DNA from: Escherichia coli O127:H6 str. E2348/69 | GTDB lineage: Bacteria; Pseudomonadota; Gammaproteobacteria; Enterobacterales; Enterobacteriaceae | Length of the DNA: 64,000 bases | NCBI RefSeq assembly: GCF_000026545.1 | Contig: NC_011601.1 | Strand: one strand, 5' to 3' | Part shown: piece by piece, positions 26,528 through 40,368 of the stretch | How the letters are laid out: each line of letters opens with the position of its first letter | Numbering within the stretch: position 1 is the first letter of the stretch | Translations under genes and position numbers: made by a program | The notes under the pieces: model-generated | Seen by the model: only the letters and a program-made list of their open reading frames with translations | Databases searched by the model: none | Told to the model about the DNA's origin: nothing

Positions 26528-26547
26528 CAGGCGGATCTCTCCGCCTG
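26528..26547 (+). terminator. hairpin after tyrB (CAGGCGGATCTCTCCGCCTG)
   Basis: Perfect 8-bp stem read directly; weak T tract. Confidence 0.45.
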
Positions 26548-26647
26548 TTCCTGACTCCAGCCATCCCCTACTATTCTGTCCCTTTTTTCGCCCACTTTTA
26601 CATCATCTATTTTCTATAAGTTTTTGAAAATTAGTGTTTTTAACTGT

Positions 26648-26663
26648 TGGTACGGATTGTGCA
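26648..26663 (+). promoter_or_regulatory. sigma-54 (-24/-12) promoter-like element upstream of the island E1 gene
   Basis: TGGTACGGATTGTGCA: TGG..AC at -24 and TGCA at -12 with canonical spacing, about 35 bp upstream of the E1 ATG. Confidence 0.5.
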
Positions 26664-26698
26664 GTAATGCGGCTGTCTATGACCATCAGGAGAAAAAC

Positions 26699-36932: not shown

Positions 36933-38279
36933 TTCTGGTCGATAAACTTGCGGTTGAATCTGATGTTTGTTGAGTTTGTCATATAAAGTCTTGCGCGGCA
37001 GCTGTAATAGCCGCGCTGTCAAACTGACCTGGCCTTCCGTTTGTCGCAGCATATCTTCGATTAACTTTTTCTCGAAAGCATCAATGCAGGCGGTAAGGCC
37101 ACTCTCTTCTTGCTGAGTCATTGGTACTGGCTGGTGGTGGGTCAGTAAACCGAGAACAAAACGCTCTGCATTGTGTTTAAGTTCACGTACATTGCCAGGC
37201 CAACTTTGTGACTGCAACCAGGCCAGTAACATGGGAGAAATATCAGGCAGAGGACGATTATATTTTTGTGCCGCCTGACTGGCGAACCAGTAAAACAGTT
37301 CAGGGATATCTTCTCGTCGTTGGCGTAGAGGTGGAATATTCAGGCTAACCACATTCAGACGATAATAGAGATCGAGACGAAACAGATGTTCTTCGCTGCG
37401 ACGCAGTAAATCTTCCTTGGTCGCTGCAATAACACGGCAATTCACCGGAATTAATTGATTGGCACCTAATCGTTCAATGGTTCTTTCCTGCAATACACGT
37501 AGCAGTTTTACCTGCATTCCTGATGGCATTCCCTCTATTTCATCGAGAAATAACGTACCACCATTTGCATGTTCAATTTTTCCAATACGCTTTTTAACCG
37601 CACCGGTAAATGCGCCCGCCTCATGACCAAATATTTCGCTTTCAAACAACGTTTCTGGTAAGCCTGCACAGTTTAAGGCAACAAACTGCCCCTGACGGCG
37701 GGTACTCCAGTGATGCAGCATTCTGGCGACGACTTCTTTACCACAACCTGTTTCACCATAAATAAGGACATCGGCACCGGTATCTGCGACATTAAGGATC
37801 ATTTTACGCAGTTGTTGCATCTGCGGACTACGACCAATCAGCACCGGGCCATTTTCCTGTTGCAGATTCGCCAGTAATTGCTGATTTTCTAAAACCAATC
37901 GCCGTTTTTCTACCGCTCTGGCAATAATACTCAATAATTTATCTGAGCTACTTGGTTTCTCAATGAAATCGAATGCACCATTACGCATGGCATCCACCGC
38001 CATTTCCACGTCACCGTGTCCGGTAATTAAAATAACCGGAATTTTGCTATCCATTTCGTTGATGTAACTGAGGAGCTCTAGTCCTGATATTCCAGGTAAC
38101 CTGACATCGGTCAGTATAATAATGTTGGCCTGACTTTGAATAAGGGGAATACTGTGTTCTGCATCGCAACAGGAAATAACACGATAACCAGCCAGCGTGA
38201 GCGTTTGTTCACAGGCAAAACGTACATCGTCACTATCCTCAATATAAACTATAGTAATTTCACTGGATTTATTATTCAT
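36921..38279 (-). CDS. kguR: sigma-54-dependent two-component response regulator (NtrC/DctD family, 452 aa)
   Basis: Receiver domain with phospho-acceptor Asp (IILTDVRLPG), AAA+ domain with Walker A GETGCGKE and the sigma-54 contact motif GAFTGA, C-terminal Fis-type HTH; gene name from memory of the UPEC KguS/KguR system. Confidence 0.85.
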   Translation of the reverse strand: MNNKSSEITIVYIEDSDDVRFACEQTLTLAGYRVISCCDAEHSIPLIQSQANIIILTDVRLPGISGLELLSYINEMDSKIPVILITGHGDVEMAVDAMRNGAFDFIEKPSSSDKLLSIIARAVEKRRLVLENQQLLANLQQENGPVLIGRSPQMQQLRKMILNVADTGADVLIYGETGCGKEVVARMLHHWSTRRQGQFVALNCAGLPETLFESEIFGHEAGAFTGAVKKRIGKIEHANGGTLFLDEIEGMPSGMQVKLLRVLQERTIERLGANQLIPVNCRVIAATKEDLLRRSEEHLFRLDLYYRLNVVSLNIPPLRQRREDIPELFYWFASQAAQKYNRPLPDISPMLLAWLQSQSWPGNVRELKHNAERFVLGLLTHHQPVPMTQQEESGLTACIDAFEKKLIEDMLRQTEGQVSLTARLLQLPRKTLYDKLNKHQIQPQVYRPESSS

Positions 38280-40092
38280 GTTCTTCTCCCCATTCAGGCC
38301 AGGTTAATGTCATTACTGCGCCGCCTTCAGGATGATTACTGGCGTGGAGTGCGCCGTTCGAATTTCGGACAATTTCGCTGACTATTGCCAGTCCCAACCC
38401 CATTCCTCTACGTTTAGTGGTAAAAAATGGTTCAAATATGCGATCGACAACTTCAGGTGCAAAACCGCCACCGCTGTCTTTAATGGTAATAATAACTTTG
38501 TTATTTGCCTGGCGAATGGCGATATCCAGTCGTTTGTAAGAGCTACCTTCCATAGAATCTAAGGCGTTGCTAATTAAATTACTGAATATCTGTTCAAGAC
38601 CGAGCTCATCGCAATTGACAAATAACGGCATGGATGGGGCTTTTATTCGTCGCTCAATATTATTTTTCTCCATGCTGTGATTAAGTAACGCCACGGCGCT
38701 ATACATCACTTTGATGACATCGGCAGAACCTTTAGGTACGCGATGGCGCGAGGCAAATGCTTTAAGTTCGGAAATGAGCTGCGTCATCCGCTCAATCACT
38801 GAAATAATGTGTTTCAGATTCTGTTCAACCTGCGGATACATCTCTTTTTTTAGCATAGTACGCGCGTTATCAGTAAGTGCGTGAATGGCGGCTAACGGTT
38901 GATTTTGTTCATGGGCAATTTCGGTTGCCATCTGTCCAAGCGCCGCCAGTTTGCTGGACTCTGCCAGTTCACTACGCGTAATTTGTAATACTTGTTCAGC
39001 CTGACTGCGCTCTTTTATCTCCTGTATTAATTTTTGATTGATCAATTCCAGGGCAGATGTACGCTCTTTAACCTGTTTCTCTAATGTTTCATTCGCCAGT
39101 GTTAATAATTGTTGTGCATGAGATCGCATTCTCCAGTATTTAATAAATAACAAAAACAGCAGGTAAATAATTAGCGTAATGACTAACGAAATAGCCCATG
39201 ACCAGTACAGGTTATCTAAGGGGACCATAATTGTCATTTTCCAGTTAAATTCTGGAATGGCTATTTGTTGCGTATAATATTGCGGGAATAAACAGAGTTG
39301 TTCTTTTTTATCTTTCAGGAAAGTAAAATTGCTCACGGTATAACAGGGATAATAATCCGCCGGTAAAAGATTGTCGAGACTATATTGGCGGGTAGATTGT
39401 AGTTTTTGTTTTGCCTGAACAGGTAACGGTTGCAGTGTTCGCATTCGCCATGGCGATTTTGAACTTAAAAATATAATCCCATGTTCATCATTCACGATAA
39501 TATTTTCAGGACCTTCGGCCCATGCTTTTTCAATTTCATTAAGACTTATTTTTACTACTACAACACCGACAATTTTTCCTTTATCTTTTATACTTGTAGA
39601 GAGGAAGAATCCCGGTGTATTCGTAGTGCTACCAATACCGTAAAAGCGTCCATTTAAGCCAGACATGGCGTGTTTATAATAGGGGCGATAGCTATAATTT
39701 TGCCCTACATAGCTGCCGGGGTCCTGCCAGTTGCTAGAAGCGATGGCCTTACCTTGGGTATCCAGAATAAATATTGCTGCGGTTTTGAGTTGAGTATTGA
39801 AATGTGCAATTCGTTGATTGAGTTCGCTGGACATCATATCGTCAGGCGTAATTACCGCCTGACGGATGATATGGTCTGTTGAGAGCATATAGGGTAAAAC
39901 ATAAAATTGCTCGATGGTGGAATATAATGTGGACTTATACATTTCAAGCCGCATTTTATCGGTACCGGACAAGGTATTAAAACGCAAGTGCAAAAAAGCG
40001 ATTGAAACCGCGAGCATGATAAGAAAAAGTGAAATGCTTGTAATGTGAAATCGCCATTTGTTCTTAAATATATAATTCCACGATATTTTCAT
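38272..40092 (-). CDS. kguS: periplasmic-sensing histidine kinase (DctB-like, 606 aa)
   Basis: Two transmembrane segments flanking a large periplasmic domain, H-box ATEIAHEQNQPL, ATP-binding G-boxes; 8-bp overlap with the regulator gene; gene name from memory. Confidence 0.85.
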   Translation of the reverse strand: MKISWNYIFKNKWRFHITSISLFLIMLAVSIAFLHLRFNTLSGTDKMRLEMYKSTLYSTIEQFYVLPYMLSTDHIIRQAVITPDDMMSSELNQRIAHFNTQLKTAAIFILDTQGKAIASSNWQDPGSYVGQNYSYRPYYKHAMSGLNGRFYGIGSTTNTPGFFLSTSIKDKGKIVGVVVVKISLNEIEKAWAEGPENIIVNDEHGIIFLSSKSPWRMRTLQPLPVQAKQKLQSTRQYSLDNLLPADYYPCYTVSNFTFLKDKKEQLCLFPQYYTQQIAIPEFNWKMTIMVPLDNLYWSWAISLVITLIIYLLFLLFIKYWRMRSHAQQLLTLANETLEKQVKERTSALELINQKLIQEIKERSQAEQVLQITRSELAESSKLAALGQMATEIAHEQNQPLAAIHALTDNARTMLKKEMYPQVEQNLKHIISVIERMTQLISELKAFASRHRVPKGSADVIKVMYSAVALLNHSMEKNNIERRIKAPSMPLFVNCDELGLEQIFSNLISNALDSMEGSSYKRLDIAIRQANNKVIITIKDSGGGFAPEVVDRIFEPFFTTKRRGMGLGLAIVSEIVRNSNGALHASNHPEGGAVMTLTWPEWGEEHE

Positions 40093-40368
40093 TCATCATC
40101 CATTGAATGCATTTATATTTATCATCAGTATATTCCCTGAACAATGTTTGCGAGAACCAAAAGAGTGCCATTGTGTGAATGTGTAAGCAGAATAACCGTG
40201 GCAATGTGTGGTTTATCGCACAGGTATTCCAAATGTGATCATGCTCTTTTTATGTGACAAATCCGCAGATAATCCTTCCTTTCCCCCGCGGTTGGCGTTA
40301 TGGTCAGATGGTTTTTTCAACAAACGCACAATAATAAGTTTCAACTTACTGACTATTTAGGGAAAAAT

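Follow-up and report, generated by a model that had tools for sequence, protein, structure and literature searches.

A nine-gene block between tyrB and aphA of enteropathogenic Escherichia coli E2348/69 corresponding to the KguS/KguR alpha-ketoglutarate utilisation island of strain CFT073

In the DctB/DctD system, a periplasmic Cache-type sensor kinase and an NtrC-family sigma-54 activator control the C4-dicarboxylate transporter DctA. Two-component and sigma-54 control has likewise been described for an alpha-ketoglutarate (KG) transporter, PA5530 of Pseudomonas aeruginosa, under MifS/MifR (PMC5318444). That source presents the transporter as the only target and describes no dedicated dehydrogenase/ligase set, the likeness to the system treated here being one of logic. 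In uropathogenic E. coli (UPEC) CFT073, the KguS/KguR pair belongs to a genomic island, c5032-c5041, located between tyrB and aphA (PMC3694859). Here we analysed a 64,000-nucleotide stretch of the genome of E. coli O127:H6 str. E2348/69 (contig NC_011601.1; hereafter the window), the prototype of enteropathogenic E. coli (EPEC), in which a block of nine genes occupies the same interval. The comparisons below make it very probable that this block is the E2348/69 copy of the KguS/KguR KG utilisation island of CFT073, together with its KG mechanism.

The function of the island has been studied in CFT073. Under anaerobic conditions KG induced both c5032-5037 and c5038-5039, while 2-hydroxyglutarate, glutamate, glutarate, fumarate and succinate did not; the induction required KguR and KguS, and KguR bound both promoter regions in electrophoretic mobility shift assays (EMSA) (PMC3694859). 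Deletion of c5032-5039 abolished anaerobic growth on KG, and a role of the island in urinary-tract fitness was observed in the mouse (PMC3694859). C5038 was identified by genetics as the main anaerobic KG importer, and FNR and ArcA were found to promote transcription of c5038 (PMC5318444). The system, its inducer, regulator, promoters and urinary-tract role were thus already known from work published in 2013-2021, in agreement with a preliminary description, prepared from the sequence alone, which had called the block probably described rather than novel (PMC3694859, PMC5318444, PMC8716947).

The interval between tyrB and aphA (region 26528-40368) contained nine long intact open reading frames (ORFs), as seen in the ORF list and in the RefSeq annotation. 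The latter was taken from the E2348/69 record NZ_CP059840.2 (4488264-4552263, reverse strand), which showed 0 mismatches against the 64-kb window. The features of the interval are as follows.

25324-26517: tyrB, left flank
26519-40230: island-specific segment not present in K-12, 13,712 bp, delimited by blastn breakpoints
26699-29443, plus strand: E1, 2-oxoglutarate dehydrogenase paralogue (c5032), 914 aa
29476-30630, plus strand: E2, dihydrolipoyl succinyltransferase paralogue (c5034), 384 aa
30642-32060, plus strand: E3, dedicated dihydrolipoyl dehydrogenase (c5035), 472 aa
32082-33251, plus strand: succinyl-CoA synthetase (SCS) beta paralogue, sucC-like (c5036), 389 aa
33264-34136, plus strand: SCS alpha paralogue, sucD-like (c5037), 290 aa
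34348-35847, plus strand: DASS-family dicarboxylate transporter (c5038), 499 aa
35859-36932, plus strand: Ldh_2-family NAD(P)-dependent 2-hydroxy/2-oxo-acid dehydrogenase (c5039; putative substrate class), 357 aa
36921-38279, minus strand: kguR (c5040), NtrC-type sigma-54-dependent response regulator, 452 aa
38272-40092, minus strand: kguS (c5041), sensor histidine kinase, 606 aa
40369-41082: aphA, right flank

CFT073 (NC_004431.1, 4808122-4821972) had all nine genes, in identical order, at the corresponding site. The 13,712-bp segment aligned with its CFT073 counterpart from end to end without gaps at 99.285% DNA identity, corresponding to 98 single-nucleotide polymorphisms (SNPs). The encoded proteins differed by 0-4 amino acids each, with KguR and the SCS alpha subunit being identical in the two strains. 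The published similarities of the CFT073 enzymes to the housekeeping enzymes (64, 69, 55, 70 and 83%; PMC3694859) also matched the positives obtained here against SucA, SucB, LpdA, SucC and SucD (64, 70, 55, 71 and 83%, respectively). The collinearity with CFT073 and the matching similarity values therefore verified the assignment to the c5032-c5041 island between tyrB and aphA, which the preliminary description had made, and its account of the nine genes agreed with the ORFs, annotation and profile matches. The two loci share the site, gene order, operon structure, sigma-54 promoter, transcription-start base and KguR sites; they differ in the 98 SNPs, one of which lies beside the c5038 KguR site, and in the host.

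Homology to K-12 MG1655 stopped one base past the tyrB stop codon (26518) and restarted at 40231 (blastn), the final 138 bp ahead of aphA being common to the island strain and K-12. The K-12 counterpart of the island is an unrelated spacer of 966 bp holding yjbS. Neither blastn nor blastx detected any similarity between this spacer and the window at the DNA or protein level, which ruled out remnants of the island inside it, and nothing matching the spacer was present in the loci of Citrobacter, Klebsiella and E. albertii. As 13,712 bp stand where K-12 has 966 unrelated bp, the difference is a replacement rather than a pure insertion. The block had first been delimited as an insertion at 26528-40368 that is missing from this locus in K-12. 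The absence of the genes there was confirmed and these coordinates cover essentially the whole tyrB-aphA interval, but the segment absent from K-12 is 26519-40230 and it takes the place of 966 bp. Separately, the last ~50 bp of tyrB were unusually diverged between K-12 and E2348/69.

No integrase, transposase or insertion sequence (IS) element was annotated among the island genes, no tRNA gene was present in the whole 64 kb, the island boundaries were not flanked by direct repeats, and an Rfam search gave no match. The block does not show the hallmarks of a classical mobile genomic or pathogenicity island, and only its kguRS end is low in GC. The GC content was 0.445 for kguR and 0.407 for kguS, compared with 0.51-0.54 for the seven metabolic genes, and the GC content at third codon positions (GC3) of the two regulatory genes was 0.39, against 0.46-0.62 for the remaining island genes and the flanks. 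The low GC of kguR and kguS suggests a mosaic origin or different constraints.

In the published reading, the island is a UPEC-specific fitness island that was acquired horizontally and recently and is absent from commensal and diarrhoeagenic E. coli. PCR for kguSR was positive in 139 of 200 UPEC strains but in 0/39 EPEC, 0/66 enterohaemorrhagic (EHEC) and 0/12 enterotoxigenic (ETEC) strains (PMC3694859), and the phylogenetic tree of C5038 grouped it with a few enteric bacteria and otherwise with Pseudomonads and Burkholderiales (PMC5318444). The intact island in the EPEC prototype E2348/69 is at odds with such an absence; in the literature searched, no paper naming both E2348 and KguS was found. 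When a kguRS query (window 36921-40092) was compared with 5426 complete E. coli genomes, kguRS was detected in 1045 of them (~19%), always in a single copy and nearly all at an identity of at least 99%. The carriers included ST131, IHE3034, UM146 and one avian pathogenic strain, and besides people, among them patients, their sources were dogs, poultry, koala, armadillo, bat, yak, mice and wastewater, a range that does not favour an acquisition specific to UPEC. When 5427 records were ranked by their identity to the window in the adjacent core gene uvrA, the values dropped sharply, from 98.4% near rank 975 to 96.5% near rank 1113. Since this drop occurs at roughly the number of carriers, carriage of the island looks clade-wide, as a lineage trait. 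We take the carrier clade to be phylogroup B2, from what is known of E2348/69, CFT073 and ST131. With regard to single records, one of the 1045 kguRS matches was on a plasmid-typed record, two records were 80-95% identical, and EcPF7 (H90) matched the first 587 bases of the query only.

Among species-representative genomes, 16 island loci were found. Two Citrobacter species and Klebsiella indica had the complete nine-gene cluster in their tyrB-aphA interval, and a third Citrobacter locus (L012) extended from E2 through aphA. In E. albertii, the right half of the island adjoined aphA and the contig ended there. The same gene order was found in Entomohabitans and Pectobacterium, and a rearranged one in a Vibrio. 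The DNA identities to the window were as follows.

E. albertii: island genes 86-94%, flanking core genes 88-93%
Citrobacter: island genes 74-84%, flanking core genes 80-87%
K. indica: island genes 70-81%, flanking core genes 75-78%

Across these species the divergence of the island genes followed that of the flanking core genes. The site shared with other genera, the core-like divergence and the lack of signs of mobility favour an old residence, and the island has probably resided at tyrB-aphA for a long time, with loss elsewhere, rather than having been acquired recently by UPEC, as far as can be judged from the compared sequences. Two considerations count against long residence: with just 16 loci the island is rare among species representatives, so that an ancient origin would have to be followed by numerous losses, and the locus may have been exchanged through recombination in the conserved flanks. 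The small number of loci and the lower GC3 of kguR and kguS also speak for recent acquisition. When these points and the published PCR and tree data are set against the EPEC carrier, the clade-sized carriage, the conserved site and the absence of mobility genes, a recent UPEC-specific acquisition appears doubtful, while keeping a real share of the probability. Two of the metagenome-assembled genomes (MAGs) look mis-binned. In the 'Citrobacter sp.' MAG L024 (DXKH01000050.1), tyrB and the island genes were 98-100% identical to E. coli, and in the 'Flavobacteriia' MAG L015 (JABXHW010000047.1), the identities and layout of the cluster were those of Vibrio sp. Y2-5.

KguR contained the Pfam domains Response_reg, Sigma54_activat and HTH_8, with a Walker A motif at 175 and the GAFTGA motif at 222. 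KguS, with 2 amino acid differences from the CFT073 protein, had transmembrane segments at 16-34 and 299-317 that enclose a periplasmic dCache_1 domain; HisKA and HATPase_c come next (Pfam), with the H-box histidine at His394. In NCBIfam, KguR matched models of the NtrC/AtoC type and KguS those of the AtoS type, both below the equivalog cut-offs. These domain architectures match the DctB/DctD type; unlike DctB/DctD, KguS/KguR have a C5 2-oxo-dicarboxylate as ligand, a transporter of the DASS family, and a regulon with a complete oxidation module. The regulatory DNA of the island comprised the following features.

26546-26595, plus strand: two conserved blocks upstream of the E1 operon, at 26546-26563 and 26576-26595
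26648-26663, plus strand: candidate promoter of the sigma-54 -24/-12 type for the E1-E2-E3-sucC-sucD operon, TGGTACGGATTGTGCA, lying 36 bp ahead of the E1 ATG
34153-34173, plus strand: intrinsic terminator between the two forward operons, hairpin and T-run, from a terminator scan
34182-34229, plus strand: KguR enhancer region of the transporter operon, with a TGTGTGG block at 34182-34199 and the site TGTGCGGAAAACCGCGCA at 34212-34229
34292-34307, plus strand: sigma-54 -24/-12 promoter of the DASS-Ldh_2 operon, TGGCATAGCTCCTGCA
40205-40222, strand not assigned: published site of KguR autoregulation, TGTGTGGTTTATCGCACA, upstream of kguS and just within the right island boundary

Transcription of c5038 is rpoN-dependent and starts at an A located 30 nt before the ATG according to 5'-RACE (rapid amplification of cDNA ends), and RpoN binding was confirmed by EMSA (PMC5318444). 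The published start corresponds to A34318 in the window, at -30 from the ATG, and the TGGCATAGCTCCTGCA element was conserved across genera. The upstream site TGTGCGGAAAACCGCGCA matched the published KguR consensus, and the enhancer region of the transporter operon was conserved in E. albertii, Citrobacter, K. indica and Vibrio. KguR regulates its own gene through a TGTGYG-N5-15-CRCRCA site, as given in Table 3 and by EMSA in PMC8716947; the corresponding TGTGTGGTTTATCGCACA site was conserved in E. albertii, Citrobacter and K. indica. The terminator was consistent with the two-operon structure determined by RT-PCR in CFT073 (PMC3694859).

For the E1 operon, the upstream regions of Escherichia, Citrobacter, K. 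indica, Entomohabitans, Pectobacterium and Vibrio were aligned. The candidate sigma-54 element at 26648-26663 came from a pattern match, and its GG and GC were kept in 7 of 7 aligned loci, from Escherichia to Vibrio. We predict this element, which is not among the published sites, to be the sigma-54 promoter of the operon, and the two conserved blocks at 26546-26563 and 26576-26595 may represent degenerate KguR enhancer sites. A third and last match to the KguR consensus in the 64 kb, an exact one, was located at 26450-26474, inside the 3' end of tyrB and ~175 bp upstream of the predicted promoter, and this motif is listed for CFT073 (PMC8716947). It was rejected as an enhancer of the E1 operon, since the CGCGCA half is missing from tyrB of K-12 and neither Citrobacter nor K. 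indica has the motif; it is either lineage-specific or a chance match.

Some further candidates were not claimed. An FNR-like sequence at 26514-26527, GTGATTTTAATCAA, has 1 mismatch to TTGAT-N4-ATCAA and was not conserved in Citrobacter; this palindrome covers both the stop codon of tyrB and the left junction of the island, at a distance of 121 bp upstream from the -24 element of the E1 operon. Two other FNR-like candidates (34141-34154 and 40112-40125) have 2 mismatches each, and a sigma-54-like element before kguS (40155-40170, minus strand) is without the GC at -12.

The island might be silent or a decaying relic in E2348/69, given that the functional data stem from CFT073, that the transporter operon has one SNP next to its KguR site, and that nearby genes of this strain show decay, qorA being frameshifted and the mal operon carrying an IS element. 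Nevertheless, none of the nine ORFs is disrupted, 0-4 substitutions each separate them from the functional copy in CFT073, with KguR and the SucD-like protein identical, and the promoters, as predicted from sequence, the KguR consensus sites and the terminator are intact as well. We therefore judge a silent or decaying island to be improbable, and an intact E2348/69 copy of the CFT073 system remains the preferred reading.

The five enzymes were scored against NCBIfam models, the bit scores being compared with the curated (equivalog) cut-offs. E1 scored 1216 bits against a cut-off of 764 (NF006914; 4 amino acid differences from CFT073) and kept H236, H274 and H707, the equivalents of SucA His260, His298 and His729. 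These three residues of SucA bind the distal carboxylate of the substrate. E2 reached 552 bits against 449 (NF004309), with the lipoyl lysine Lys42 and the catalytic His355 and Asp359 kept, and E3 478 bits against 408.8 (TIGR01350), with the redox pair Cys49/Cys54 as well as His451 and Glu456 kept. The scores of SCS beta (NF001913) and SCS alpha (NF004230) were 530 bits against 370 and 470 bits against 336, respectively, and the phospho-histidine His248 was kept in the alpha subunit. As the five enzymes, and also the DASS protein described below, exceeded the curated cut-offs, they are not chance ORFs.

The housekeeping sucABCD and lpdA genes belong to the same families, and the island set shares with them the catalytic residues and the gene order, E1-E2 followed by beta-alpha. 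Protein identities to SucA, SucB, LpdA, SucC and SucD were 49, 50, 38, 56 and 68%, respectively, and the DNA similarity to the housekeeping genes was patchy, at 63-81%. The housekeeping sucAB genes were found in 5425 of 5426 complete E. coli genomes, and the island carriers therefore have two sets. The island has its own E3 within the operon, whereas lpdA of K-12 is at a separate locus after aceEF. Transcription of the island is sigma-54/KguR-dependent, KG-induced and anaerobically favoured, while sucABCD belongs to the aerobic regulon of the tricarboxylic acid cycle (PMC3694859, PMC5318444). An NADH-insensitive E3 was considered because Gln360 is located where the E354K substitution of Lpd relieves NADH inhibition; this residue varies among the orthologues (Q, Q, D and H), leaving no more than a weak hint.

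The complex and ligase could act on another 2-oxo-dicarboxylate, e.g. converting 2-oxoadipate to glutaryl-CoA, with KG serving as an inducer or side substrate. The published reports indeed use the word 'putative' for the enzyme complex, the E1, E2, E3 and SucC paralogues are just 38-56% identical to the housekeeping proteins, and the Ldh_2 partner is without an assigned substrate. On the other hand, deletion of c5032-5037 impaired anaerobic growth on KG and not on C4-dicarboxylates, glucose or glycerol, and KG was the sole inducer, with glutarate, glutamate and 2-hydroxyglutarate being inactive (PMC3694859). The conserved distal-carboxylate histidines of E1, as well as the scores of E1 and E2 above the equivalog cut-offs for the 2-oxoglutarate complex, also point to KG, and a different substrate is thus highly improbable. 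There is a negligible chance that the block arose through misassembly or as a copy of the housekeeping sucABCD/lpdA genes, nothing more than the gene names shared in automatic annotation speaking for it: the protein identities of 38-68% rule out an assembly duplication and bear out the expectation of a paralogous set, the DNA similarity is patchy, and the same block occurs at one site in 1045 independent complete genomes.

The DASS protein (TIGR00785, 240 bits against 198.6) differed from that of CFT073 by 1 amino acid. In the alignment, SAT replaced both SNT motifs, as also reported in PMC5318444. Its scores to characterised relatives were all similar, at 94 bits for VcINDY, 84 for the plastid DiT2.1, 77 for LaINDY and 71 for DiT1. 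VcINDY is a symporter, and LaINDY, DiT1 and DiT2.1 are exchangers; sequence similarity does not decide between the two modes for the DASS protein.

For the Ldh_2 protein, the nearest model was that of YbiC (NF007504), reached at 276.6 bits and below the equivalog cut-off of 336, and the best solved relative was E. coli YbiC as well (PDB 2G8Y, E = 4.9e-52). The island protein is a YbiC-like paralogue and not a YbiC equivalog and, unlike ybiC, its gene is fixed beside a DASS gene. Indeed, all loci with an Ldh_2 gene had it immediately downstream of the DASS gene, and Paraburkholderia and one proteobacterial MAG had the DASS-Ldh_2 pair without the dehydrogenase, ligase and regulator genes. That the two genes stay together even where the other cluster genes are missing suggests that transporter and enzyme form a module which handles the imported acid. 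The neighbours of the Paraburkholderia pair (a MocR-type regulator, a DJ-1-like protein and others) were uninformative as clues to the substrate, and a literature search on YbiC/HcxB enzymology gave nothing usable.

Together with the published genetics, these features outline a mechanism. In CFT073, the genetic work showed that the membrane sensor kinase KguS responds to external KG and that KguR, binding TGTGYG-N-CRCRCA, acts with sigma-54 to activate the E1-sucD operon, the DASS-Ldh_2 operon and kguSR, with expression favoured without oxygen through FNR and ArcA. The DASS protein probably imports KG, in view of its family and conserved residues. The family memberships and catalytic residues of the enzymes suggest that the dedicated 2-oxoglutarate dehydrogenase complex would convert KG to succinyl-CoA, CO2 and NADH, and that the dedicated SCS would then yield succinate and ATP at the substrate level. 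The island enzymes would in this way replace the housekeeping SucABCD/Lpd, which is repressed anaerobically. More speculatively, the 2-oxo acid taken up may be a substrate of the Ldh_2 enzyme, which could provide a redox outlet by reducing KG to 2-hydroxyglutarate, and the transporter may exchange KG for succinate. From the gene content, the preliminary description had predicted a regulated route by which a 2-oxo or 2-hydroxy dicarboxylate is taken up and oxidised via succinyl-CoA, and for the 2-oxo-dicarboxylate this coincides with the function published for CFT073.

Several observations weigh against this mechanism or against its full extension to E2348/69. All of the functional evidence comes from CFT073. 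Deletion of kguS alone gave no growth defect on KG (PMC3694859), and the signal input may accordingly be more complex. The published work calls the complex a 'putative' KG dehydrogenase and was found to contain no assay of the purified enzymes, its substrate specificity resting on genetics and homology. 2-Hydroxyglutarate failed to induce the operons (PMC3694859), leaving Ldh_2 with a putative role only. With respect to the regulatory DNA, the SNP relative to CFT073 mentioned above (CACA to CATA) lies just outside the c5038 KguR consensus, and the exact KguR consensus was not found in the intergenic region upstream of E1, where degenerate conserved blocks only were seen.

A more extended proposal is that the cluster, instead of being a virulence island gained by UPEC, is an old enterobacterial tyrB-aphA locus, kept in B2-type strains including EPEC and lost elsewhere, and encodes a self-sufficient anaerobic dismutation of KG. 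The DASS protein would exchange KG for succinate, the dehydrogenase/SCS branch would make ATP, and Ldh_2 would reduce a second KG to 2-hydroxyglutarate and thereby recycle NADH. The private E3 would be needed because it would tolerate a high NADH/NAD ratio. We consider this combination unlikely as a whole.

What the present analysis adds to the published system is modest: the presence of the island in the EPEC prototype, its lineage-wide carriage, the conserved synteny seen in further genera, the prediction of a sigma-54 promoter for the E1 operon, and the constant pairing of the DASS and Ldh_2 genes. As a discovery it is of little weight, the addition being a correction of the scope of a published system. 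In view of its presence in EPEC, the carriage by ~19% of the complete genomes, the lack of signs of mobility, the shared site and the core-like divergence, the island is better viewed as a trait of the B2-type E. coli lineage than as a UPEC-specific acquired virulence determinant. This affects the use of island presence as a marker of extraintestinal pathogenic E. coli.

Elsewhere in the window, a gene for an IS4-like ISEc13 transposase (8135-9508) was located between lamB and malM, within the malK-lamB-malM operon. This copy is strain-specific, and CFT073 has no IS element between lamB and malM. The annotation of E2348/69 marks qorA (20043-21031, minus strand; NADPH:quinone reductase) as frameshifted. 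Another small insertion specific to the lineage, likewise found in CFT073, lies between alr and tyrB at 23663-25245, where it replaces 173 bp of K-12. It carries the following two genes.

23684-24241: pnuC-type nicotinamide riboside transporter, in the alr-tyrB insertion
24238-25242: NadR-like nicotinamide mononucleotide adenylyltransferase/kinase, annotated as 'AAA family ATPase', in the alr-tyrB insertion

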